This document shows, one piece after another, positions 2,829-38,147 of a stretch of DNA of 64,000 nt; positions within the stretch are counted from its first letter, which is position 1; each line of letters begins with the position of its first letter. The stretch covers positions 64,457 through 128,456 of the forward strand of contig CANJIU010000009.1 of assembly GCA_947474365.1 (NCBI GenBank). The letters run 5' to 3'. The DNA comes from Opitutia bacterium. GTDB taxonomy: Bacteria; Verrucomicrobiota; Verrucomicrobiia; Opitutales; Opitutaceae. Under the pieces are notes generated by a model that ran no database searches, was not told where the DNA came from, and saw only the letters and a list, made by a program, of their open reading frames with translations. The position numbers and the translations under genes were made by a program.

Positions 2829-4292
2829 ATGAAACGCACGCTCCTTGTATCCTTTGTCCTCTCGCTGCTCCTGCCCTGCTCCCGCGCGGCGAACGCGGCC
2901 CGCCCCAACGTTCTCTTCATCATCTCCGACGACCTCACTGCCACCGCGCTCGCCTGCTACGGCAACCCGATCGCACGGACGCCCAACATTGACCGGCTCG
3001 CCACCCAGGGCACGCGGTTCACGCGGGCGTTTTGCCAGGGAACCTACTGCGGGCCATCGCGTGCGTCGTTTATGTCCGGATACTACCCGCACGCGACTGG
3101 CGTGCTCGGTTATACCAGTCCGCGCGCGGCCATCGGAGAACGCGCGACCTGGGCGCAGCATTTCAAAAACGCCGGCTACTACACCGCCCGCGTCAGCAAG
3201 ATCTACCACATGGGCGTGCCCGGAGGCATCGAGGAAGGTGGCGACGGACGCGACCAGAACAACGGCGACGGCGCCGACGACCCGGCGTCCTGGACCGAAC
3301 GTTTCAACAGTCCCGGCCCCGAATGGAAGGCGCGCGGCGTCGGAGAAACCCTCGAGGGCAATCCCGACGGCAAAAAGCCCGTGGTGGGCGGAAACACGTT
3401 TGTCGTCGTCGAAGCCGAGGGCGACGACCTGGTCCATTCCGACGGCAAGACGGCCGCCAAGGCCGTCGAACTCATCTCCAAACACGCCGGGAACCCCTTC
3501 TTCCTCGCCGTGGGTTTTGTCCGGCCCCACGTGCCGTTCGTCGCTCCGAAGAAATATTTCGAGCCATTCCTGCCCTACGACAAGCTCACGCTCCCTCCGA
3601 AAATCCCCGGAGACTGGGACGACATCCCCAAGGCGGGCATCAACTACAAGACGAGCGTGAACATGAAAATGGACGAACGCCGGCAAAAGAAGGCGCTCGG
3701 GGGCTATCTCGCCTGCGTCTCCTACATGGACGCCCAGGTCGGCAAGGTGCTCGATGCGCTGACGAAGGCCGGACTCGACGACAACACGATCGTCATCTTC
3801 ACCAGCGACCACGGCTACCATCTCGGCGAGCATGATTTCTGGGCCAAGGTCAGCCTGCGCGACGAATCGTCGATGGTGCCGCTCATCATCCGCGTCCCCG
3901 GGAAAAAGCCGGCCGTCTGTCACTCCCTCACGGAACTCCTCGATCTCTATCCCACCCTTTCCGCCCTCTGCGGCCTTGAGGTGCCGGCACGATTGCAGGG
4001 CAAGAACATTGCCCGGATGTTCGACGACCCGGCCCATGTCGTGCGCGACACGGCCTTCAGCGTCGCGCCCTCGAGCAAAGGCTTCCTGCTGCGTGATGAT
4101 CGCTGGGCCTACCTTCAATACACCGAGAACGCCTCCGCCGGAATCGAGTTATTCGACGTCGTGAAGGACCCGAAACAGTTCACCAACCTTGCCGCCAAAC
4201 CGGAGTTCGCCGCGGTCGTATCGGACTACCAGGCCAAACTCGCGGCGAAATTGCGCGCCGTGCGCACGAACGATCTGGGTGCGAAGAATTAA
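2829..4292 (+). CDS. Sulfatase (formylglycine-dependent arylsulfatase family) with signal peptide
   Basis: Signal peptide MKRTLLVSFVLSLLLPCSRA. NVLFIISDDL plus a CxPxR fGly motif (YCGPSRASFMSG). Typical sulfatase length of 487 aa. Confidence 0.9.
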   Translation: MKRTLLVSFVLSLLLPCSRAANAARPNVLFIISDDLTATALACYGNPIARTPNIDRLATQGTRFTRAFCQGTYCGPSRASFMSGYYPHATGVLGYTSPRAAIGERATWAQHFKNAGYYTARVSKIYHMGVPGGIEEGGDGRDQNNGDGADDPASWTERFNSPGPEWKARGVGETLEGNPDGKKPVVGGNTFVVVEAEGDDLVHSDGKTAAKAVELISKHAGNPFFLAVGFVRPHVPFVAPKKYFEPFLPYDKLTLPPKIPGDWDDIPKAGINYKTSVNMKMDERRQKKALGGYLACVSYMDAQVGKVLDALTKAGLDDNTIVIFTSDHGYHLGEHDFWAKVSLRDESSMVPLIIRVPGKKPAVCHSLTELLDLYPTLSALCGLEVPARLQGKNIARMFDDPAHVVRDTAFSVAPSSKGFLLRDDRWAYLQYTENASAGIELFDVVKDPKQFTNLAAKPEFAAVVSDYQAKLAAKLRAVRTNDLGAKN

Positions 4293-4303: not shown

Positions 4304-6403
4304 TCAGGGCATTTCATACAACTCGACCAAAGCGACGCCGGTCGTGTTTCCCACGCCGCTAACCTGTGCGGTGTAGGCGCCCGGGGCGAGGTTGATGATG
4401 AGTGCGGCATCCTGACTCCCCGCCGTCAGGGCAAACGCGCCCACTTGCGCGGAGCCACTCGTGATGGCCGCCGCATCGGGCGACCCACTCCACCCCGCAT
4501 TGCTTGCCAGCACGTTCGTCCCGGAACTCACGGTCAGCGTCGGCCGCGCGAGCGCACCCGTGACGCCGAATTGCGTCAATCCTGGGCCGGTACCGCGAAT
4601 GAGGACCCGTTTCGGCACGTTTCCCGTAATAAAAAAACCGGTGATGAGGGCGCCGTCGCCTGTGCCGGCCGTCGCACGGATCGCGGTATTGACGATCCGC
4701 TGATCGCGCGGAATTTCTCCGATGGTCGCATCATAGACCTCCACCATGCTGACACCGCTCACGCCACCCTGACCCGTGACCACTGCGGTGTAGGTCCCTG
4801 GCTCAAGGTCCAGCATGAGCGCCGCGTCGCGACTGTTATTCGCCAGAGGAAAGGCTCCAACCCGCGCGGCCGCCGCTGCGATTGCGGCAGAGGAAGCACC
4901 ACCCGCGGCGGGTGTGCCCCAATCATTGCCGACGGCCACGGACGTCGCGCCGCGGAAAACCTCCAAACGCGCGGCACTGAGCACGCCGCCAACTCCGAAC
5001 GTCGCAAGGGTCGGGCCGATCGCGCGCACGAGCACCGGCTTGGGCCGCGTCCCCGAAATGACAAAGCCTGCGATCAAAGTGTTCGCCGCCGTGCCCGTCA
5101 GGCTTCGCGTGGAGATGTTGATCAATTTGTCGAGATCCGAGCGGACATCACTGCTCCCCACAAAGGTCGCCGCCGCTCCGTTCGCCGGCGTCACGGTCGC
5201 TGAAAAAATCGACGTCGCGGCAGAAATCGTGCCCACCACGCGCGCATTTGCGGCCGTCGAGAGACTGACCACGCCGTCGGTGGAAACGGTGCCGACGCCA
5301 CCATCGGCCGTCGCACCCATAACGTTCACCAACAGAACCTCACCCTTGGCGCTCACGATCGCGTAGCCCTGCGCCGATCCGCCCACCATCCGCGTCGGAA
5401 AAAAGCCCGCCACCGCCGCCGTCACGCCGGTCCGGGCCGCAGCAGGTGCGATGAACGCGAGATTGATTCCGGAAACCGAGCCCTTGAGCGTGCCATCGGG
5501 CCCAATGCCTCCTTCGACGCGACCGCCGCCCTCGAGGTCCGCGGCAAATGAACCGTCGCCCGCCACCATGACGTCGCGACCGACGAGAGCCGTCCGCGTC
5601 GCATTCGCGAAACCCAGAAACACCCCGGTGCGATCTGTCCGAATGATGAGTGAGAAGGCGCCACCTTCGCTGCCAAAGGCACCAAAGTAAGTACCGTCAA
5701 TTGGAGCCGGACGGACGGTAAGCAACGCGGAGCTGGACGCAACGCTGCCGGCAACGTTGGTCACCACCACCTGATACGAACCAGAAACCGTGGCGTTCAC
5801 CACGTTGAGCGAGGCCGACGTGGCACCTGCAACGGCGATACCGTCCTTCTGCCATTGATACGACAGAGGTCCGGTACCAGAGGCGGCAACCGTCAACGTG
5901 GTCGACCCGCCGAAATCCACCGACTGCGCCACGGGCTGGGTCACAACGGCCGGAGCCTCGGGCTTGAAAACCGGCGTGACGGTCAGGACGGCAGTCGAAC
6001 TGGTCACCGAGCCATCGTTGTTCGAAATGGAAACCGTGTACGTCGCCGCATCGTTCTGCGCCGTTTTCTCCAGCGTGAGCGTCGGACTCTGCGCCCCCGC
6101 AATCACGGCCCCATTCTTGAACCACTGATAGAGGGGAAACTTGCCCGTCGCCGTAACCTCGAACGTCACACCGGCGCCTTCTACGACCGTGCGGCTGATC
6201 GGCTGCGCGGTGATTACCGGCGTTACCTGCGGTCCGCTACCATCGCCGCCACCCCGGCCATTGCCACCCCCCGAGCCGTTGCCTCCGTGACCACCCGCAC
6301 CACCGGAGACCGGAACCGTCTGGGCACTCACCCCAAACGTGACCAAGAAAAGAAGAGCGAGCCCACGGAAGAGGCGCCAAGGGGACGACAACGTGGGTCT
6401 CAT
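4304..6403 (-). CDS. Secreted multi-domain protein: Gly-rich linker, two Ig-like (I-set-type) domains and two ~120-aa C-terminal tandem repeats
   Basis: Start chosen at MRPTLSSPWRLFRGLALLFLVTFGVSAQ (signal peptide), ATG at 6403. Gly-rich linker GGAGGHGGNGSGGGNGRGGGDGSG. Two Ig-like domains with YQW(Q/F)K(D/N)G motifs. Two diverged repeats, each ending ...PG(A/T)YTA.V(S/T)G..G.(T/S)GV.(L/M)VE(L/V)Y. The upstream part of the six-frame ORF (to 6889) overlaps an intergenic repeat and is rejected. Confidence 0.75.
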   Translation of the reverse strand: MRPTLSSPWRLFRGLALLFLVTFGVSAQTVPVSGGAGGHGGNGSGGGNGRGGGDGSGPQVTPVITAQPISRTVVEGAGVTFEVTATGKFPLYQWFKNGAVIAGAQSPTLTLEKTAQNDAATYTVSISNNDGSVTSSTAVLTVTPVFKPEAPAVVTQPVAQSVDFGGSTTLTVAASGTGPLSYQWQKDGIAVAGATSASLNVVNATVSGSYQVVVTNVAGSVASSSALLTVRPAPIDGTYFGAFGSEGGAFSLIIRTDRTGVFLGFANATRTALVGRDVMVAGDGSFAADLEGGGRVEGGIGPDGTLKGSVSGINLAFIAPAAARTGVTAAVAGFFPTRMVGGSAQGYAIVSAKGEVLLVNVMGATADGGVGTVSTDGVVSLSTAANARVVGTISAATSIFSATVTPANGAAATFVGSSDVRSDLDKLINISTRSLTGTAANTLIAGFVISGTRPKPVLVRAIGPTLATFGVGGVLSAARLEVFRGATSVAVGNDWGTPAAGGASSAAIAAAAARVGAFPLANNSRDAALMLDLEPGTYTAVVTGQGGVSGVSMVEVYDATIGEIPRDQRIVNTAIRATAGTGDGALITGFFITGNVPKRVLIRGTGPGLTQFGVTGALARPTLTVSSGTNVLASNAGWSGSPDAAAITSGSAQVGAFALTAGSQDAALIINLAPGAYTAQVSGVGNTTGVALVELYEMP

Positions 6404-6500
6404 GAACGGAACAGGAGCATCGCGGGACGTTAAAACCGATTTATCCGAGGTCAAGGGAGGCCCCCTGCTGTCGTCTTTCTCCCTAATCCGTAGAAATTCA

Positions 6501-6640
6501 GTCGAGAGCGGAGAGCCGGGAGCTGAGAGCAAAACCAAACGGTGAACTTCGGTTTCGGGTCGGGCGGCGCGCGTGTCTGGTCTCGAGATTGGGCTCTCAG
6601 CTCTTCGCTCCGAGCTCTCGACTGCATGGTCGCGGCTAAT
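6501..6640. repeat. R1 copy 1 plus an imperfect inverted-repeat partner (gtcgagagc..agctgagagc / gctctcagct..gctctcgac), forming a long hairpin between the SGNH hydrolase stop and the Ig-like protein start
   Basis: Read directly from the sequence. Arms at 6501-6530 and 6593-6622. Confidence 0.65.
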
Positions 6641-16788: not shown

Positions 16789-17149
16789 CTGCTAGTTTGC
16801 AACAAATAGACGCGGAACGTCCGCAAGCGGATGAGGCATGCCGATTGGAATATCGGGAAGCGGGTCCGCGGACGCCGGGAGCCGGAGTCTTGGATCCCGG
16901 CGAACATCAATCGGCATGACCGGTCCGCTGCCCCGCGCCTGGTTTCGACGACGTGGGCGTCGCCGCTCCAGCAGGGCGCAGCAGAAATAGGGAGTAAGTC
17001 CGAGAGGGACGCCGACGCTGCCGATGTCACTCACGAGGTCGCCCCCCTCACCCCATGAGGTTCAAGAAGTCGCCCGGGATGAAAATGAAGGACCGCTTTG
17101 GCGTAAACGAGGGCACCCCTTCTTACGACCGCAGACCGACCGAAATCGG

Positions 17150-17235
17150 ACGGGCGAGACCGCCCTGCCGGCTCCATGCTATGTCTATGCTATGTCCATG
17201 CTGCGTCCCTTTATGGCGATTTCCGGCGACCAGCC
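17150..17235. repeat. R2 copy 1, in the 890-bp non-coding region upstream of glnD
   Basis: See 27050-27135. Confidence 0.75.
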
Positions 17236-17680
17236 CGGCGATCCCGGAGCCGTTGCCGAGACCAGATGCCGTAAAACACTCCATGGGCATGGCTTAGGTC
17301 GCCGGCGGCGCCGCGAGGGCCCACCTGTGCTCCCCTATTTTTCTGACTGAAAGCAGGTTAGCGGGCGGCATCCGTTCCTCCAAAGGAAGCGATTCCAAGT
17401 GCCGCCAACGGCGAGCGGGCAACGCGATCACCCCGTGGGAGTCGAAAAGGTAAGGGACGACTCGCTCTTTGAGCGGTCCGGGCTGCTTGTCGTGCGGACG
17501 GACGATTTCGGACGCCCCGGAGGTGCGTCCCTACCATCCAGAACTCGTTTTCGATGCATTAAGAGGGGCGCCACGCCCCCGTTTGCCGGCGACCTACCGC
17601 CCCGCGGTTGCGGGATTCCCAACTTGGGCGTTGAATGTTCGACGTCCGCCGTTCGAAGTTGCACGTTCGTCGTCCCACCC

Positions 17681-23878: not shown

Positions 23879-24298
23879 CATACTGGGACACGCCAATAAC
23901 GGGGCGCCCGACGGACTGTCAAGGATGCGGGCAATCCTTCGCGCGCGGCGGGTGCATTTCAATTCCTGGACACTGGGAGTCACGGCTCCAGCAGTTGCAC
24001 GGGATCGGACCGACGGCGTCAGACTGCCCCGTTTAACAGGCTCCCTCCCATCCTTGCGCCGGCGCAAATGACGCGAGCATCGGCGTGGGCAATGGCATCA
24101 GCGCCTTTTGGGCAGGTCGCACTCAAGGGCGACAAGCCGGGCACAGTGGTAGAATGCGTCAATCTGGGGCGGCGGCATTCCAGGGGACGAGCAGGCACGG
24201 TAACGTCCGTGATCCCTTCGTCCGCCCCATTTCGCATGAATGAACGACGATTCATCTCATCTCCGTCCCGACGCAAACCCGGTTAACCTTTTCACCGA

Positions 24299-24712
24299 AT
24301 GAAAACGACCTGCCTGCTCGCGCTCTTCGCCCTCGTCACCTTCTGCGGCGGATGTGCCACCGTCAGCCCGAGGGTGACCAGTGGAATTCGGATCAACCCG
24401 GAAGCCGTAAGCGACATTCTACCCGGGGTGACAACCCGCGCGGAGCTCATCCGTCAATTCCGCCAATGCTTTTTGGGGACACCGCAGTGGACATGGGATG
24501 CCGAGCGAGCGATTGCCTATACGTGGACCACGAGCAACGGGGCGACAGCGCGGTGGTATGGCAAAATCTTGTCGGTGCAGCAAACAGACTGGGCCCTGGG
24601 GATCGTCTTTGATTCATCGGACCGGGTGGTTCGCTACGATTTCTTCAAATCGTCGTCGTCGCCGGAGAAAACCCGCGAGGCCGTGGAGGCATGGATTCAC
24701 GCCAAGTCGTAG
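24299..24712 (+). CDS. Hypothetical lipoprotein
   Basis: MKTTCLLALFALVTFCGGCA lipobox-like signal. 137 aa. Codon usage is less GC-biased than the neighbours. Confidence 0.55.
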   Translation: MKTTCLLALFALVTFCGGCATVSPRVTSGIRINPEAVSDILPGVTTRAELIRQFRQCFLGTPQWTWDAERAIAYTWTTSNGATARWYGKILSVQQTDWALGIVFDSSDRVVRYDFFKSSSSPEKTREAVEAWIHAKS

Positions 24713-24805
24713 CAGGGGTGCGGCTGAGCTGATACCGCCCGAGACTCCGTCACCTCACGCGATCCGTTACCCTTGAAATCCGCGCATAAGGAAGTCGATC
24801 CCTCG

Positions 24806-25294
24806 ATGAACTCACTCCCTCGCTGCCCCCACGTCCGCACCGTTCTCACCGTAGTCGTCGCGCTCCTGTCCCTGGCTGCCAGTCGAGTTACCGCCGTCGC
24901 ACAGACCTTGCCCCCGGGGGCTTCGCTCCAGCCCTTTGCCTTCGCTTCTGCCCGAGCGGCCCTCCCCTCCTTTGCCACAAACAAAGAGCGCCATTTCGAC
25001 TCCGATGTTTTTCTGACCAGTAAGGGGAAAGTCGCACTCGTGATGCCCTGGGCTTTTAATGGATCGAATGCGTGGGTGCTTGGGTTGGTGGGAATTGAAG
25101 CCGCCCTCGTTCTGCACCAAGAAAATGTTCAAAAGCGCGAAGTCGCACGAATCGACGAACAGATTGGGATGGTTGCCCTCACCGACCCGACCCGGGCGAA
25201 AGTTTATCGAACCGAGATGGAACGCGCCATGGCTGGTCGATCAACCAACGTCATGCCAATGCGTGAAAGCTTTCGAGGCACCGTTAGACGATAG
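24806..25294 (+). CDS. Hypothetical secreted protein
   Basis: MNSLPRCPHVRTVLTVVVALLSLAASRVTAVAQ signal-like N-terminus. No recognisable domain. Confidence 0.45.
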   Translation: MNSLPRCPHVRTVLTVVVALLSLAASRVTAVAQTLPPGASLQPFAFASARAALPSFATNKERHFDSDVFLTSKGKVALVMPWAFNGSNAWVLGLVGIEAALVLHQENVQKREVARIDEQIGMVALTDPTRAKVYRTEMERAMAGRSTNVMPMRESFRGTVRR

Positions 25295-25425
25295 CGCGGT
25301 GGCGGTCGCTCGGCTGCGCGTATCTGACCCATGAGCCTGATGTTTGATGGGCCCCATGACCCGCATGGACATTCTCAGTCTTGCCAAGGGCGATGACACC
25401 ATCGCGCCTTGTTCCCAAACCAAGG

Positions 25426-25463
25426 TCGCGGGAGAATGGCAGGCAAAACATTCTCCCGCGACC
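25426..25463. other. Perfect 14-bp stem hairpin (gtcgcgggagaatg / cattctcccgcgac, 10-nt loop) in an unassigned lower-GC stretch
   Basis: Read directly from the sequence. No flanking U-run on either strand, so it is not a canonical intrinsic terminator. Confidence 0.5.
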
Positions 25464-25968
25464 CTCTGCTGTTCACCGATGGGTACGCGTCTCGTCGTGG
25501 TAGTTTATCCGAAAGGTGGGTTGAACCCGGTGCCCGTAGGTCGAGCGTGCTGTGGCAACGAGCGGTCCTGATGCACGGCGGATCGCAGCCTCTGACCGGC
25601 AACTCGAAACGTTTCGCGTCCCTCAGCCCGGGACCTTCAATCCACTCGACTTTGATCTACGCCAAACCTGGGTTGTCGTTAACCGAAATCCTGACACGCG
25701 CGTTTGACCGCCTCATGGATTGCACGAAAAAATCGCACCCCAAAACCTGCAATGCCATGTCTACGTTTTTTGGGGTATGTAGTCTGTAACACGCGGCGAG
25801 TTCCTGAGCTCCCGGAGGTGCAACGTATCCGACCAGCCAGTAGCGGAAGGGCTTGGTGATCGGTTTCGTTGCCGGAGTGGCGGATATATGAAGGGCTTCG
25901 GTGCCGAAGTCGATCATCTGGACCGGCACTTGTCTGAACTTGAAGTCTACGCCTGCAATGGTTGCCGG

Positions 25969-26841
25969 CTAGAGTTTGCTGACCACCGGGGAGACGGGCA
26001 GCGCGAGGTGCAGGCCGGAAATCCGGTTCAGGTCGATGCTGACTTCGCGCGCTTCATTCTCGGCGCGACCGTTGAGTGTCAACCGGAGCGGCGCCGGCGT
26101 GATGCGGAAAAAGAGGCTGCCCGTGACGGTCTGACCGGGCGCGAGCGAAAGCGGCAGGACCAGTCGGCGACGGGTGAATTCCTCCTCGATGCGGTGCTTG
26201 CTTCGGATGTTCATCGCCACGCTCCCGACGGCCACCACCGGCAGGGCAACCACAGCCGCGGTCCCGACGCCGACGGCTGCGGCCCCCGCAGTGGTCATCC
26301 CGCTGAAGAATCCGCCGCTCAACGCCCCCGCGACGGCGACTCCCGCGCCCGCGACCGTGCCCGTTCCCAGCAGCAGCATCGTCTTGGTCTGGTCGGCCGC
26401 GTTGCTCTGCCACCAGGTTTTGCCGGCGCGATCGAGCTTCCAGGGATCTTCACCGGGAGTCACAGGCTCGCTGTGGGCGCTCGCCAACGTGGCGGTCGAG
26501 ATGACGAGCGGTGCTTCGCCGCGATTCGTCAGCGAGACAATATATTCGTCCCAATAGGCCTCGCGCTTCCAGGAGCCGGGGCCTTGGTAAATAATCACGG
26601 TGTGCAAAGTGGCCGCGGCCAATGGCGGCGCCGTGGGAGCTGTCTCGGCGCTGGTAGATGGACCTGGATTGGCCGAAACGATCGGTGCGCTGGAAAGTTC
26701 CAGCGGCACGACAGCGGGCGTGGATTTGTCCGCGAGTTTGTAGCCCCGGGTGACACAGCCAGTGAGCGTGAGGAGGACAGTCGCGGCGCCGATAAAACCC
26801 AGGCAACTGTAAATGAAGGAAGACGCACGGCATGTTTTCAT
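25969..26841 (-). CDS. Hypothetical lipoprotein with Gly/Ala-rich TM-like segment
   Basis: MKTCRASSFIYSCLGFIGAATVLLTLTGC signal/lipobox. Pro/Ala-rich linker. Gly/Ala-rich hydrophobic stretch (GTGTVAGAGVAVAGALSGG...). 290 aa. Confidence 0.55.
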   Translation of the reverse strand: MKTCRASSFIYSCLGFIGAATVLLTLTGCVTRGYKLADKSTPAVVPLELSSAPIVSANPGPSTSAETAPTAPPLAAATLHTVIIYQGPGSWKREAYWDEYIVSLTNRGEAPLVISTATLASAHSEPVTPGEDPWKLDRAGKTWWQSNAADQTKTMLLLGTGTVAGAGVAVAGALSGGFFSGMTTAGAAAVGVGTAAVVALPVVAVGSVAMNIRSKHRIEEEFTRRRLVLPLSLAPGQTVTGSLFFRITPAPLRLTLNGRAENEAREVSIDLNRISGLHLALPVSPVVSKL

Positions 26842-26907
26842 GAAGGGAGCTTAGATGGGGTTGCCCTTCATGCGGGATACTGGGTCGAACCGGATCAGAT
26901 AGACGGG

Positions 26908-27015
26908 CCGGCCACGACCGGGACAGCCCGTGAATTGCTGCCCGCTGCAGCCGCGATCGGGACTATTTGTGAGCCGAGACTAACAATTCACGAAATAACC
27001 CGTTTGGCAGGCATC
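26908..27015. repeat. ~100-bp repeat unit A, with internal inverted repeat ccgtgaattg...caattcacg. Copy 1 of 2.
   Basis: Shares about 80% identity with 27690-27815: ..cccgtgaattgctgcccgctgc..ctaacaattcacgaaataacccgtttggcaggc vs ..tccgtgaattgctagcccgctgc..ctaacaattcacggatagacccttttggcaggc. Confidence 0.7.
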
Positions 27016-27049
27016 CTTTTGCCCCCGGAACGGCCGGAATCGAACGGAC

Positions 27050-27135
27050 GCGACCGCCCTGCCGGCTCCTTGCCGTGTCCATGCCGTGTCCTTGCCGTGT
27101 CCCTTCTGGGCGTTTTCCGGCTGCCGGTCCGGTTT
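27050..27135. repeat. ~90-bp dispersed intergenic repeat (family R2), copy 2. Contains three 10-bp tandem units (cWtgcYRtgtc).
   Basis: cgaccgccctgccggctccttgccgtgtccatgccgtgtccttgccgtgtcccttctgggcg matches 17150-17235 (gagaccgccctgccggctccatgctatgtctatgctatgtccatgctgcgtcccttt) at about 80%. Confidence 0.75.
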
Positions 27136-27212
27136 CCGGCGCCCCCGTTCTGGCCGAACCGCCACACGGCGAGTGCCGCCAGCCGGGCGACCGAGAGCCG
27201 CGGGGCTATGAT

Positions 27213-27268
27213 GATTGGGCTCTCAGCTCTTCGCTCTGAGCTATCGTCTGGCATCGTTCCGGCTCAGG
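27213..27268. repeat. ~50-bp dispersed intergenic repeat (family R1), copy 2
   Basis: gattgggctctcagctcttcgctctgagctatcgtctggcatcg matches 6586-6640 (gattgggctctcagctcttcgctccgagctctcgactgcatgg). Confidence 0.75.
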
Positions 27269-27391
27269 CAACGACCTGCAATCAGCGGATTGGCCTCGTT
27301 GGGCCGGCCGTGAAATCCGGGGTCGGGCGTCCTCTGGCGCCCTTTCGGACCTCCTCTCGTCCTTCACTACCGGTATACTGCCGGGATACTC

Positions 27392-27435
27392 ATCACCCAC
27401 AGATTACCCACACATCACCCGCACATCACCCACAG
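27392..27435. repeat. Tandem array of 4 x 11 bp (atcacccacag attacccacac atcacccgcac atcacccacag)
   Basis: Read directly from the sequence. Confidence 0.8.
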
Positions 27436-27689
27436 CGGTCGTTTCCCGCCGGGTGGAGCCGCCTCGCGCCCAACCGGGCCGCGCAGCACTGCTTCCCCCC
27501 GCATCCGGCAACCGCTCCGCGGCGGCAGCGCCGACGCCGTGACGCCATGTCGCTTTAACCTACCCACCACTATAACCTGCCTCGCCGCGCCGAGGAAGGG
27601 AAAGTTCGGCCCGAGCGTGCAAGTCGTTGCCGCGATCGAACCGTAGTACTTTTTTTGCCCCGCGCTCCAAACACGAAGCACGGGGCTGG

Positions 27690-27815
27690 CGACCGGCCCG
27701 ACCGGCGACCGGCCCGACCGGGTCAGTCCGTGAATTGCTAGCCCGCTGCCGCGACCGGAGCTCTTTGTGGCCATGGACTAACAATTCACGGATAGACCCT
27801 TTTGGCAGGCCGCAT
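27690..27815. repeat. Repeat unit A copy 2 of 2. Preceded by a tandem duplication of cgaccggcccgaccgg.
   Basis: See 26908-27015. Confidence 0.7.
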
Positions 27816-27905
27816 GGATGGCAGGCCGGGTTGCCGCAACGTCACGACTCCGTCGAGCGCATCCCGCCACGGGTTGCGCGCTGGAACGTTTCTAAAAGTC
27901 GCCGC

Positions 27906-27980
27906 AAACCCACGCGACGGGGCGTCTCGTACCCAGGGAATCGGATTCCGAACGGATCGAACTGGAGCGGCGACGCGCCC
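27906..27980. repeat. ~75-bp direct repeat (family R5), copy 1
   Basis: aaacccacgcgacggggcgtctcgtacccagggaatcggattccgaacggatcgaactggagcggcgacgcgcccg vs 28015-28092. Blocks aaacccacgcgac, ccggattccgaaYggatc and actggMgcggcga are conserved. Confidence 0.65.
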
Positions 27981-28014
27981 GATGACGCCCCAGCAAGTTG
28001 CGCAATAGCATAAC

Positions 28015-28092
28015 AAACCCACGCGACAGTGACGTTGCGTCCCCAGAAACCGGATTCCGAATGGATCAGACTGGCGCGGCGATGTCCGCCCG
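28015..28092. repeat. ~75-bp direct repeat (family R5), copy 2. Contains a perfect 9-bp stem hairpin ctggcgcgg/ccgcgccag.
   Basis: aaacccacgcgacagtgacgttgcgtccccagaaaccggattccgaatggatcagactggcgcggcgatgtccgcccgcgccag. Ends 20 bp before the helicase stop codon. Confidence 0.65.
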
Positions 28093-28111
28093 CGCCAGCC
28101 TCGAAAAGCAC

Positions 28112-29941
28112 CTACTCCGTCTTCGTCTCGTCGCCCGCGAGCGCGGGCTCAAGCGCGATGCCCTTGAGTTTGATTCCGGCGAGTTTCTTCACGATGAACT
28201 CCGCCTCAGGCTTGGCCACATCGGCCAGCGTGTGCCGCTGGTGAATGTCGATCGCCCCGACCACGGTGGCCGGAAGGCGGGTCACTCCCGCGATCTTCCC
28301 CACAATGTCCGCCGGCGTGACGAGTTGCTTGCGGCCAACATTGAGAAAGATCGTCGCCATCTCGGGGTCCCGTCCGGTTCGCGCTGGGCGTTCATACTTT
28401 GGCTTCCGGGACGACCCGGCTTCAAGGTCGTCCTCGGATGGCGTGGTCGTCTCGGACGGGAGTTCGGCAGCGGCGGCGCCGTGTGTACGCGCGACATCGG
28501 CCACCACCTCCTTGGGCGACGTGACGGCCTTGGCCCAGGCGGGCGCGGGCTTGGCGGAACGCGGCGCGGCCGGTACCGACGTCGGCGTCGCGGCGAACGG
28601 CGTGGCCGGGACGGGTGCACCCGGTTTCTTCCCGGTCGCCGAGGCGGCAGCCTGGCTACCCTGCAGGAGATGGATCAATGCCGAACAGATGTCCGTGCTG
28701 GCGTACCCCTGGTCGAGCAACCGATCGATCAGCTGGTCGTGGGGCTTGAACTCCTTCGCATCGAGCGTCGCGCGGATTTTTTCCACGAAGACGTTGGACC
28801 GGGCCGCGTCGACCTCGTCGAGCGATGGAATCTTTCCGCGCCGGATGTCGAGGCGAGCCCAGCGCACCATGCTCTGCAGTTTGTAGATCTCCTGGCCCGA
28901 CACGAAGGTGAAGGCCTGGCCCTTCCGACCGGCGCGTCCGGTGCGCCCGATGCGATGGGTGTAGTCCTCTGCATCGTTTGGCAGGTCGAAATTGAACACC
29001 ACCTCGAGGTCGTCGACGTCGAGCCCGCGGGCGGCAACATCGGTCGCAACAAGGAACTCGAATTTCCGCTCACGGAACTTCTGCATCACGCGGTCACGCT
29101 GCGCCTGGGAAATGTCACCATGCAGACGGTCGGTCAGATAGCCGCGCGAGTGCAGGTGCTCGTCGAGGTCGTCGACCATGATCTTCGTGCTGCAGAAAAT
29201 GATGCCATAGCGAAAGTCGTTCACGTCGATGAGCCGGGTGAGCGCCTCAATTTTCGACCGCCGGTCCACCTCAAAGTACGTCTGCTCCACCTGCGGGGCG
29301 TTTTGCGCGACGGACTCGATTTTGATCCAGGCCGGATCCTTCGAGTAGCGGGAAATCAGGTCCTGAATCGCCCGCGGGATGGTGGCCGAGAAAAACAGCA
29401 GCTGCCGCGTGGGCGGCACGGATTTCAGGATGTGCTCGATGTCATCGCGAAACCCCATGTCGAGCATGCGGTCGGTCTCGTCGAGGATCGCGAGCTTGAG
29501 CTGGTCGAGTTTCAGCGTGCCGCGCTCCATGTGGTCCATCACGCGTCCCGGAGTGCCGATGACGATCTGCACTCCGGCCGCCAGGGCGCGGAACTGCCGC
29601 TCGTAGCTCTGCCCACCGTAAATCGGCACGCCCGAGACGCCGCGCTTGAAGAGCGCGAGTTTGCCGAACTCCTCCGCCACCTGTACCGCCAACTCACGCG
29701 TCGGACAAAGGATCAGCACCTGCACGGCCCGAATCTTCGGGTCGACCTTCTCGATCGCCGGAATGGCAAAGGCCGCGGTCTTTCCCGACCCGGTTGACGA
29801 CTGTCCGACGACGTCGCGGCCGGTCAAGATCGTGGGGATGACGGCCGTTTGAATGGGAGAAGCCTCCTCAAATCCCATCTTCGCGACGGCTTTCAGGAGG
29901 TCCGGCGAGAGGCCGAGTTGATCGAACGGGCGTTTTTCCAT
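28112..29941 (-). CDS. DEAD-box ATP-dependent RNA helicase (DeaD/CsdA-like) with ~170-aa low-complexity C-terminal extension
   Basis: Start at MEKRPFDQLGLSPDLLKAVAKMGFEEASPIQ (Q-motif), ATG 29941. Walker A GQSSTGSGKT. DEAD box. SAT and HRIGRTGRAG motifs. Ala/Pro-rich tail and a C-terminal RNA-binding-like domain. The six-frame ORF extension to 30643 is rejected. Confidence 0.9.
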   Translation of the reverse strand: MEKRPFDQLGLSPDLLKAVAKMGFEEASPIQTAVIPTILTGRDVVGQSSTGSGKTAAFAIPAIEKVDPKIRAVQVLILCPTRELAVQVAEEFGKLALFKRGVSGVPIYGGQSYERQFRALAAGVQIVIGTPGRVMDHMERGTLKLDQLKLAILDETDRMLDMGFRDDIEHILKSVPPTRQLLFFSATIPRAIQDLISRYSKDPAWIKIESVAQNAPQVEQTYFEVDRRSKIEALTRLIDVNDFRYGIIFCSTKIMVDDLDEHLHSRGYLTDRLHGDISQAQRDRVMQKFRERKFEFLVATDVAARGLDVDDLEVVFNFDLPNDAEDYTHRIGRTGRAGRKGQAFTFVSGQEIYKLQSMVRWARLDIRRGKIPSLDEVDAARSNVFVEKIRATLDAKEFKPHDQLIDRLLDQGYASTDICSALIHLLQGSQAAASATGKKPGAPVPATPFAATPTSVPAAPRSAKPAPAWAKAVTSPKEVVADVARTHGAAAAELPSETTTPSEDDLEAGSSRKPKYERPARTGRDPEMATIFLNVGRKQLVTPADIVGKIAGVTRLPATVVGAIDIHQRHTLADVAKPEAEFIVKKLAGIKLKGIALEPALAGDETKTE

Positions 29942-30601: not shown

Positions 30602-31031
30602 CTCGCAGCCCGGGACATTCGGCGCGCTCGGGGACGAAATCATCCATCAAACCGCCCCGCCAACGGCACTTACGCGACCTACGTAACAGCGATGCTTGTA
30701 CGCGGTGCCGCGACACGCATTCTCCGACGCGTTCTTAGGATTTACACGCCTAAGCTGCCGCCGCTTCCTCGGCGACCAGCACGGGGGACCCAATTTTCCG
30801 TCGCCAGCACGAGCAATCGCGCAGGCGGCGGGCGGGGCGAACGGACGCGGGCAACCGCGGCCAAGGTGACTTCCTAGCACCGAGCCCGTCAGCTAACCTC
30901 GTCGGCAATGGGAAGGGTGATCCACTAGAGCGCCGCATTTGCGGATGTCTCCAAGGTCGCTCCAACGCAACCGCACCGTCGTGCACGTCGGGGAACACCT
31001 GTCGTGCGGGCGGCGCTTTCCAGACATCGCC

Positions 31032-32969
31032 ATGACCTCAGTCGTTCTCTCCCCGTCCGGTGCCGCGGCCCTGTTCGCGCACCTGTTCATCGTCGCCGTT
31101 TCCCTCTGTGCTCTGGGCCTCGCGCTTCGTCAGCAAGCGCAACCTTGGCGACTCGCGCTGGGTCTAGCGGCCGCCGCGCTCTGGCTCACGCCGCTGATTC
31201 TCGCCTCCGGCTGGGCCGAGCGAGGCCTGCTGCTGCTCGCGAGCCTGCTTCTGGCGCCCGGCCTCGTGGGCCTGGTCGTCATTCGCGAAAATCAGGTCGG
31301 CATCGTGATCAAGAAGTTCGCGTCGCGCTCACTGCCAGCCGGACAGCTGATCGCACTCGACGGCGAGGCCGGCTATCAGTCCGACACGTTGCCGCCCGGG
31401 CTCCATGCCGGGTACGTGTTCTGGCAGTTTCGCATCGTCAAGACGCCCATGGTCGAGGTTGCGCCGGGACAGATCGCGCTCGTCGTCGCCGCCGCCGGCG
31501 CGCCGATTCCTCCCGGACGCATCCTCGGTCGCGTCGTCGACTGTAACAACTTCCAGGATGCGCGCCGATTCCTGCTCGGCGACGGCGAAAAGGGCCGCCA
31601 GCTCGGGCTCCTGACCGCCGGCACGTATCGGATCAATCGCGCCCTGTTCGAGGTCATCACGGCCGACAACGCCCACGAACACAACATCCCGCCCAGCTAC
31701 CTCGAGCTCACGCACATCGAGCCTGACATGGTCGGGATCGTCACCACCCTCGATGGCCTGCCGATCGAAGGCGGCGAAATCGCGGGCGCGACCATCCCGG
31801 GGCATGACAACTTCCAGAACGCCCAGTCGTTTCTCGATCACGGCGGCCGGCGCGGACTGCAGGAGCAGGTGCTCCTTTCCGGCTCGTGGAACCTCAACCC
31901 GTGGTTTGCCGAGGTGGAACAGGTGCCGATGCTCAGCATCCCAATCGGCTCGGTCGGTGTCGTGATTTCCTTCGTCGGGCTCGCGCACCTCGATGTGAGC
32001 GGCGCCGAGTTCAAGCACGGCGATCTCGTCAACGTCGGCCACAAAGGCGTGTGGGTGTCGCCGCTCTACCCTGGCAAGCACCCGGTCAACACCCGCGTGA
32101 TGCGCGTCGAGCTCGTCCCGACGACCAACATCGTGCTCAACTGGGCCAACCGCACCGAGGCTCACCACTTCGACGAAAAACTCTCGTCGATCACCGTGCG
32201 CTCCAAGGACGGCTTCGCGTTCAACCTCGACGTCGCCCAAATCATCCACGTCGGCGCCCTCGACGCCCCCAAGGTGATCTCGCGCATCGGCTCGATGCAG
32301 AACCTCGTCGACCACGCGTTGCAGCCGATTGTGGGAAATTATTTCCGCAACTCCGCCCAACACCACACCGTGCTGGACTTCCTCAACGCCCGCAGCGACC
32401 GACAGGCCGAGGCGTCGGGCCACATCCGTTCGGCGCTCGCCGCTTATGACGTCCAGGCCATCGACACGTTGATTGGCGACATCACGCCGCCCGCGGAGCT
32501 GATGAAAACCCAGACCGATCGCAAAATCGCCGAGGAGGAAAAGAAGACCTACGAAATCCAGGAAGCCGCGCAACGTCAGCGCCAGGAACTCGTGAAGGCC
32601 ACGGCGCTCGCGAACATCCAACAGCAGATGGTCGACGCCGATCAGGGCGTGCGCATTGCCGAACTCCATGCCCAGTCCGCGATCCGCTCGGCGAACGGCG
32701 AGGCCGAGTCGACGAAGCTCCGCGCCTTCGGTGAAGCCGACGCCATCCGCGCCACCGGCAACGCCAAGGCCGAGGCCTACCGCGCCGGTGTCGAATCGCT
32801 CGGCGGCGCCAACTACACCCTGATGCAGCTCACGCAAACCCTCGCCGACAAGGGCGTGCGCATCGTGCCCGATGTTTCGGTTACCGGAGCACAGGGCGGC
32901 AGCGGCCTGCTCGACTCCATGCTCGCGCTTCTTGCGCGGGAGAAGAACGAAGGCACGAAGTCGGCCTGA
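31032..32969 (+). CDS. SPFH/band-7 family protein (flotillin-like) with N-terminal TM helices and C-terminal coiled-coil
   Basis: Start MTSVVLSPSG. Multiple hydrophobic helices, then the SPFH core. C-terminal EA-rich coiled coil (AEAYRAGVESLGG). No NfeD-like partner gene is adjacent. Confidence 0.75.
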   Translation: MTSVVLSPSGAAALFAHLFIVAVSLCALGLALRQQAQPWRLALGLAAAALWLTPLILASGWAERGLLLLASLLLAPGLVGLVVIRENQVGIVIKKFASRSLPAGQLIALDGEAGYQSDTLPPGLHAGYVFWQFRIVKTPMVEVAPGQIALVVAAAGAPIPPGRILGRVVDCNNFQDARRFLLGDGEKGRQLGLLTAGTYRINRALFEVITADNAHEHNIPPSYLELTHIEPDMVGIVTTLDGLPIEGGEIAGATIPGHDNFQNAQSFLDHGGRRGLQEQVLLSGSWNLNPWFAEVEQVPMLSIPIGSVGVVISFVGLAHLDVSGAEFKHGDLVNVGHKGVWVSPLYPGKHPVNTRVMRVELVPTTNIVLNWANRTEAHHFDEKLSSITVRSKDGFAFNLDVAQIIHVGALDAPKVISRIGSMQNLVDHALQPIVGNYFRNSAQHHTVLDFLNARSDRQAEASGHIRSALAAYDVQAIDTLIGDITPPAELMKTQTDRKIAEEEKKTYEIQEAAQRQRQELVKATALANIQQQMVDADQGVRIAELHAQSAIRSANGEAESTKLRAFGEADAIRATGNAKAEAYRAGVESLGGANYTLMQLTQTLADKGVRIVPDVSVTGAQGGSGLLDSMLALLAREKNEGTKSA

Positions 32970-38010: not shown

Positions 38011-38147
38011 GGGACCAAGAGACCAATGACCAAGAGACCGACAAGCCCCCTCGGCGCATCTCGGTTGCCGCCGTCCCAACGTCTCTTCGTCCCGCGGGAC
38101 CTTGGTCGTTTAGTCCCTTGGTCCCTTCGTCTCTTTGTCGTTTTTTT
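38011..38147. repeat. Nested imperfect inverted repeats (gggaccaag...cttggtccc, and gaccaag...cttggtc) ending in a T7 run. They overlap the start codon region of the next ORF.
   Basis: A1 38011-38019 pairs with B2 38117-38125. A2 38029-38035 pairs with B1 38101-38107. The ttttttt run is at 38141-38147. Confidence 0.55.

Follow-up and report, generated by a model that had tools for sequence, protein, structure and literature searches.

A repeat-rich intergenic gap within a lineage-specific insertion beside the DeaD-type helicase gene of a freshwater Opitutaceae lineage

We analysed a 64-kb stretch of the genome of an Opitutia bacterium (family Opitutaceae; contig CANJIU010000009.1), referred to below as the window, and within it an intergenic gap of 1270 nt at 26842-28111. 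The gap is flanked by two minus-strand genes, one for a lipoprotein-type product that matched no Pfam family and one for a DeaD-type helicase, annotated as 609 aa in public contigs. L-numbers denote the contigs or loci of relatives or metagenomes that were compared with the window. Repeats were recovered by a repeat search, Tandem Repeats Finder (TRF) and self-BLAST of the whole window, and the units listed in a preliminary description of the gap proved real, each being found close to where it had been placed and far beyond chance. The claim in the same description that the gap is built almost entirely of repeats was overstated, as the union of recognisable repeats covers ~650 of the 1270 nt (51%), while 27265-27365 and 27435-27687 are unique sequence. 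Tandem arrays are nevertheless concentrated here: three of the five sites in the window that score at least 50 in TRF fall within the gap, which makes up 2% of its length. The features are collected in Table 1.

The gap shows no sign of coding, in agreement with the earlier view that it has no credible open reading frame (ORF). Codon-phase GC differences do not exceed 0.20 across the gap as against 0.3-0.5 in the flanking genes, a Pfam scan of the ORFs inside the gap matched nothing, and a 119-aa ORF (27415-27774, minus strand) had no match but itself in a set of 1.84 billion representative proteins. This ORF and an 88-aa one (26988-27254, minus strand) are annotated as genes in the public metagenome contigs L006-L008; both calls are probably spurious and driven by GC-phase bias. 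Rfam searches of the whole window at the gathering threshold and of the gap at E≤10 gave no relevant match, the only one in the gap being a chance match to a snoRNA. ARAGORN found no tRNA or tmRNA, and a tRNA-like reading of GGATTCCGAA and TTCGATTCC in the repeat units U75 and R2 was therefore abandoned. A scan for promoter and terminator consensus sequences yielded nothing exceeding shuffles. When both strands of the gap were folded in sliding segments of 120 nt, the sole outlier was the segment holding the second copy of a palindromic unit, H.

Comparison with relatives places the gap inside an insertion. In L144, L146 and L147, whose helicases are 87%, 84% and 84% identical to that of the window, respectively, the helicase gene is followed by genes for an HNH protein (205 aa), an ACT protein, a GAF-HisKA protein and GlnD, in an order identical to that of the window. 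The distance from the helicase stop to the HNH gene is 96, 72 and 96 nt in these relatives, compared with 4230 nt in the window, where the HNH gene starts at 23881, and homology to the relatives' helicase-HNH spacer stops at 23944. Hence the gap forms the 1.27 kb nearest the helicase in a lineage-specific insertion, and the helicase-HNH junction, ancestrally tight, is split by ~4.2 kb of DNA in this Opitutaceae lineage. A promoter-like block 5′ of the HNH gene, CCTTGACAGTCyGTCGG...GTTATTGGCGTGTCCC, is kept in all four genomes. The strongly conserved promoter-like TTGACA...GTTATTGG is found upstream of the HNH gene at 23882-23944 of the window and in the spacers of the three relatives. The order DeaD helicase, HNH (205 aa), ACT is conserved in Opitutaceae, and the HNH protein weakly matches the IscB and Cas9 HNH domains in NCBIfam.

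The same comparison bears on the proposal, made in the preliminary description, that the gap is a long structured 3′ untranslated region (UTR) of the cold-shock-type DeaD helicase. The gap does follow directly downstream of the helicase gene, in the same strand orientation, and the hairpin behind the stop codon is without a U-tract. However, the orthologous helicases at 84-87% identity are separated by only 72-96 nt from the conserved promoter of the next gene, none of the 1.27 kb is common to these relatives, and no excess structure was found in the gap besides H copy 2. We regard a 3′ UTR of this kind as very improbable.

Besides the gap, the insertion contains the lipoprotein gene, an ORF of 137 aa and, at 24713-25968, another stretch poor in genes. 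This stretch, on the other flank of the lipoprotein gene, is ~1.25 kb long; its ORFs are weak or short and are inconsistently annotated across public contigs, its GC content is down at 0.52-0.60, and it includes a perfect 15-bp hairpin at 25424-25463. The ORFs of the insertion other than the lipoprotein gene had no Pfam or NCBIfam matches, and tblastx of the insertion against all compared loci gave only low-complexity noise of at most 39 bits. The closest homologue of the lipoprotein, in L011, has 81% amino acid identity. The blastn match of the window to L011 and L012 (84%) runs over 25960-26896, that is, the gene and 55 nt upstream of it, and ends there. The neighbours of the L011 gene are unrelated to those in the window on both sides, and a tblastn pseudogene search with its ankyrin and peptide-binding neighbours found nothing.

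A recombination or integration hotspot had also been suggested, and the comparison supports this in part. A further relative, L145 (helicase 84% identical), has other content directly after the helicase, including an 800-nt gap with a 2.8 × 14-bp array, and the 3′ flank of the helicase is therefore a repeated breakpoint. The insertion could be what a larger integrative element has left behind as a scar, or mark a hotspot of site-specific recombination at this flank, with the repeats as degraded attachment sites and element ends. The 4.2 kb of lineage-specific DNA lie exactly at the helicase terminator, the junction sequence is duplicated in U75, and the lipoprotein gene occurs in unrelated contexts in relatives, all of which would suit such an origin. 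Marks of integration were not seen: no integrase, transposase or tRNA was found in the insertion and no direct repeats at its two ends. The copies of U75 stand in tandem at one end and are not divided between the two. We consider a scar or hotspot unlikely, if less so than the 3′ UTR.

The sequence of the locus is found, at 99.9-100% identity, in several freshwater metagenome assemblies from the European Nucleotide Archive and Logan. Eight short contigs from independent assemblies break off in the repeats, at 27017, 27068, 27078 (two contigs), 27241, 27743, 27862 and 27886, and contig L149 terminates at 27923, within U75. The contigs that span the tandem arrays are all identical; several others end inside arrays, which would mask variants.

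The most informative repeat is H, with copies at 26908-27012 and 27709-27810 in the self-search of the window (80% identity over 106 nt, E 8e-17). Copy 2 folds into a nearly perfect hairpin of ~100 nt with folding energies of -44 kcal/mol on the plus strand and -51 on the minus strand (z -3.6 and -5.4), and its 25-nt arms are 84% complementary; for copy 1, z is -1.5. With its terminal inverted repeats and an element size of ~90-110 nt, below the ~300 bp usual for the class, H has the form of a miniature inverted-repeat transposable element (MITE). A metagenome scan with both H arms gave one true relative, at 3240-3338 of L133, in which perfect 19-nt arms (GGGGTCAGGCCGTGAATTG...CAATTCACGGCCTGACCCC) enclose an unrelated loop. 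Matches to the arms in viral contigs were unrelated phage coding sequence or due to chance.

Covariance models added a degenerate second copy in L133, 4 kb away, two copies in L150, one in L154 and a decayed orthologous copy in L151-153. This makes six copies outside the source lineage, at four distinct loci of a single Verrucomicrobiota lineage, that of L133, L150, L151 and L154. Weak matches of the models in L081 and L084 belong to a different palindrome. The spacer that holds the L150 copy at 6196-6312 is 313 nt long, as against 34 nt in L151-153, so that an occupied and an empty site can be compared; the extra DNA of the longer spacer also contains repeats other than H. In the alignment of all eight copies the paired fraction of cells is 82%, but 71 of 500 shuffles match the covariation score. 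The substitutions mostly break pairs and are not compensated, as would be expected of decaying copies of a DNA palindrome and not of an RNA structure under selection. H is thus a multi-locus family with presence/absence polymorphism and without covariation, and it appears to be a previously undescribed family of ~100-nt palindromic elements common to two Verrucomicrobiota lineages.

These copies also allow a role in RNA to be weighed. On this view the H hairpins, perhaps together with the arrays next to them, would serve as small RNAs or in cis regulation, through an RNA structure such as an attenuator, a stability element or a site bound by protein, and would be transcribed either with the lipoprotein gene or upstream of it. 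The strong fold of copy 2 relative to shuffles (z -5.4) and the conservation of the arm sequence across lineages are what such elements might show. Furthermore, copy 1 and one copy in L133 (L133a) share their orientation relative to the gene and are each placed 50-170 nt 5′ of a gene start, which could hint at a cis role, though the cases are too few. Set against this, no relevant Rfam match was obtained in the gap even at E≤10, the substitutions in H break pairs without compensation, and the copy that adjoins the lipoprotein gene is the decayed one. Moreover, the genes downstream of H are unrelated (the lipoprotein gene, an AMP-ligase gene, or none), and the closest lipoprotein homologue is without H altogether. 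A regulatory or small-RNA role is in our estimation improbable, and the suggestion that the gap is a non-coding RNA locus was not borne out, H copy 2 being the only part that folds unusually well.

Among known systems, Correia elements of Neisseria and ERIC/IRU elements of enterobacteria are MITE-type palindromic elements of ~100 nt, intergenic and dispersed. H resembles them as an imperfect palindrome of ~100 nt with conserved terminal inverted repeats, copies that decay, and both occupied and empty sites, but unlike them it has no definable target-site duplication and no known parent insertion sequence. The gap as a whole recalls bacterial interspersed mosaic elements and clusters of repetitive extragenic palindromic (REP) sequences, being an intergenic mosaic of small palindromes, short motifs and flanking segments that varies between close relatives and causes assembly breaks. 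REPs are self-contained palindromes of 20-40 nt, whereas the arms of H are 22-25 nt long and lie ~36-40 nt apart. The arms start with GGG(G)TCAG, and H is not a GTAG/CGTC REP because neither tag is present. The REP pattern GTAGCYGGGGCG...CGCCCC has only a chance-level match in the window. As a GTAG-tagged REP-like palindrome, this pattern occurs in five copies within 21 kb in a Verrucomicrobiota lineage that also bears H-like elements. GTAG-type REP-like sites lie at 3092-3103, 6153-6164 and 8582-8593 of L133 and at five positions of L150, and there are none in the window. Di Nocera et al. (2013, PMC3733652) report a high enrichment of GTAG REPs in Opitutus terrae.

The ends of H point to another possible comparison. 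The inverted repeats that flank RAYT-like 'TIRYT' tyrosine transposase genes are reported to carry the motif GGGGWSAS, and TIRYT-associated terminal inverted repeats (TIRs) to occur as dimers and clusters (PMC3733652). The H termini GGGGTCAG...CTGACCCC of L133 and L150 fit this motif exactly, and those of the window copies agree with it in 7 of 8 positions; GGGGTCAG stands at both ends of L133a, L150a and L150b, and copy 2 of the window reads CGGGTCAG. Unlike the TIRYT repeats, no copy of H was seen beside a Y1 transposase gene: no transposase was found in any of the compared loci, and no called gene there carries Y1_Tnp. The match is an 8-nt motif taken from one paper, and we treat it as a lead only. 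H elements with these ends might conceivably be the non-autonomous partners of an undescribed RAYT/TIRYT-type system with an HUH Y1 single-strand transposase in Verrucomicrobiota. The recurring pairing of a palindrome with arrays, here and in L081, would then arise through hairpin-induced fork stalling followed by slippage, from which mosaic spacers would be built, and the gap would be an active landing pad and not inert debris. We give this extension a small chance, of the same order as that of the scar or hotspot.

The second dispersed unit, R1, matches 6587-6637 of the window (86.5% over 52 nt, E 2e-7). That second copy belongs, as one of the arms, to a 130-nt hairpin (6499-6620) made by two inverted heptamer arrays (z -6.3); the gap holds a single arm only. 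A genome scan with the R1 core found at least 115 loci in Acidobacteriota, Gemmatimonadota, Planctomycetota, Chthonomonadales, Verrucomicrobiota and others. In the contexts of the matches listed, the core is a tandem heptamer array, (GCTCTYN)n, with units GCTCTCA, GCTCTCG and GCTCTTG in many phyla. Among these matches many Acidobacteria loci carry one and the same 4-unit array between flanks that are unrelated, and some heptamer loci among L015-L129 have two arrays in inverted orientation that give long hairpins. In a crude test of orientation relative to genes, 128 arrays among the matches listed gave 39 against 43 for downstream gene starts and 36 against 41 for upstream gene ends. The absence of an orientation bias speaks against the arrays as 5′-UTR signals and argues for an origin at the DNA level. 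Read as the reverse complement, TGAGAGC, the array gives stop codons in every reading frame.

Intergenic direct repeats of heptamers, with the unit TAACTGA, have already been described (MacGregor 2015, PMC4679880), and the survey of prokaryotic simple sequence repeats (SSRs) as summarised there includes SSRs with long units. The arrays of the gap resemble both in their head-to-tail units of 7-11 nt, intergenic position and scattered phylogenetic distribution, and in that contigs end inside them. They differ from the TAACTGA heptamers in their unit, GCTCTYN (besides the 11-mers), and in having no sense-strand preference upstream of start codons. A related architecture was seen in L081, a Chthonomonadales metagenome-assembled genome, where the palindrome GGGCAATTCATGAATTGCCC is followed by heptamer arrays (GCCTCTA/GCTCTCA) at 860-980 and 5020-5400, in a mosaic repeated several times; this combination of palindrome and array resembles the gap.

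R2 recurs at 17112-17251 of the window (74% over 140 nt, E 2e-19), in the gene-free gap 16789-17398 between the gene for a phosphoenolpyruvate-utilising enzyme and GlnD. This copy carries an 11-bp array of its own (2.7 units in TRF, 17173-17202). Within each copy the three 11-bp units are uniform, but they differ between copies, with TCCTTGCCGTG (CCGTG) in the gap and TCCATGCTATG (CTATG) at 17 kb, which is the signature of slippage and homogenisation. The predicted pairs of R2 show two to three double changes, which are uninformative with two copies only. The TRF arrays of the gap comprise 3.3 × 11, 2.3 × 11, 4.0 × 11 and 2.1 × 16 bp; all run head to tail, as SSRs do, and the 4.0 × 11-bp array (27391-27434) scores 67. 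Outside the gap the only TRF arrays at the same threshold are that at 17173-17202 and a 2.8 × 16-bp array, CCTTGGTCGTTTAGTC, at 38100-38143.

The third type of repeat adjoins the helicase gene. The two copies of U75, 27905-27981 and 28014-28092, are 80% identical over 80 nt (E 6e-10). The second copy holds a perfect 9-bp hairpin, CTGGCGCGG/CCGCGCCAG, at 28071-28098, which is lost from the distal copy. The larger GC-rich hairpin listed in Table 1 has 12-nt arms that are 92% complementary and is followed by UGAUCCAUUCGG, without a U-tract; the consensus scan did not call it as an intrinsic terminator. At the corresponding place after the helicase, relatives have GC-rich hairpins unrelated to this one.

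Table 1. Features of the gap and its surroundings (window coordinates; a dot in the strand column denotes no strand)
Feature	Position	Strand	Details
Lineage-specific insertion, ~4.17 kb	23945-28111	.	Between helicase stop (28112) and conserved HNH promoter block
Lipoprotein-type gene	25969-26841	-	N-terminus MKTCRASSFIYSCLGFIGAATVLLTLTGC; lipobox LTGC readable in the sequence
Proximal upstream region of the lipoprotein gene (putative promoter/5′ UTR)	26842-26896	-	Only part of the gap kept in the closest relative
H copy 1, decayed, lower stem broken	26908-27015	+	80% identical to copy 2; covariance model 100 and 74 bits
R2 unit	27006-27143	+	Includes 3.3 × 11-bp array TCCTTGCCGTG at 27067-27102
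R1 unit	27213-27264	+	Core 27219-27246, 4-unit heptamer array GCTCTCA GCTCTTC GCTCTGA GCTATCG
Two adjoining 11-bp arrays	27366-27434	+	TRF: 2.3 × ACTACCGGGAT, 4.0 × CATCACCCACA
Unique non-coding stretch	27435-27687	.	Without repeat, unusual fold or homologue
2 × 16-bp tandem duplication GGCGACCGGCCCGACC	27688-27719	+	100% identical; abuts left end of H copy 2
H copy 2, intact palindrome	27709-27815	+	Arms 27720-27744 and 27775-27799, tail TTTTGGCAGGC; covariance model 112 and 91 bits
U75, two copies	27905-28092	-	109-nt-period tandem duplication of the helicase 3′ (terminator) flank
GC-rich terminator-like hairpin	28068-28101	-	10 nt past the helicase stop; inverted repeat and fold
DeaD-type helicase gene	stop at 28112	-	Pfam: DEAD, Helicase_C, DeaD_dimer and DbpA domains

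The reading we favour, and think probable, is that the gap is a mosaic of MITE/REP-like elements and SSRs, a weakly constrained filler in recently acquired DNA that is without a product of its own. Of the options in the preliminary description it is thus the cluster of MITE/REP-like elements that fares best, given that H is a palindromic family dispersed in other genomes too, with presence/absence polymorphism, and that other intergenic gaps of the window hold further copies of R1 and R2. Three processes at the DNA level would have built the gap and would still be reshaping it under weak selection. In the first, small non-autonomous palindromic elements would have inserted, perhaps through an enzyme acting in trans, and then decayed; H (~100 nt, 22-25-nt inverted arms), with one intact and one decayed copy, would be such an element, and R2 may be a further dispersed unit. 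In the second, replication slippage would have created and homogenised the arrays of short period (7, 11 and 16 bp). In the third, a local tandem duplication of 109 nt would have copied the terminator flank of the helicase. We infer that most of the gap lacks a function; a role in gene expression is likely only for the hairpin that follows the helicase stop and for the 55 nt preceding the lipoprotein gene.

Several observations weigh against the mosaic of mobile elements and SSRs. Within the window H occurs only in this gap, as two copies; the covariance models detected no others in the 64 kb or in ~250 kb of other Opitutaceae loci, and no remnant of H was found beside the R2 copy at 17 kb. 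Hallmarks of mobility were not seen, whether target-site duplication, transposase or integrase; none of the eight copies has a visible duplicated flank, and the true ends of the element are uncertain. The placement of copy 1 and of one L133 copy upstream of gene starts, described above, is a further such point. Finally, the arms of H are strongly conserved between two distant lineages whose loops differ, which needs either recognition by a protein or recent transfer.

Elsewhere in the window, a c-di-AMP riboswitch was matched on the plus strand at 30737-30922 (RF00379, 56 bits, E 2.6e-10), immediately 5′ of an SPFH/Band_7 gene (30939-32969); after this gene comes one of an amino-acid permease family.

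The overall phenomenon is known; it is ordinary bacterial intergenic clutter, and nothing points to a new function. The case documents how a compact junction of less than 100 nt has grown to 4.2 kb in a freshwater Opitutaceae lineage. Such mosaics fragment metagenome assemblies and yield spurious gene calls, as with the two ORFs of the gap annotated in public contigs. If the link to a Y1 transposase were true, the H family would extend REPIN/TIRtron-type systems to Verrucomicrobiota.

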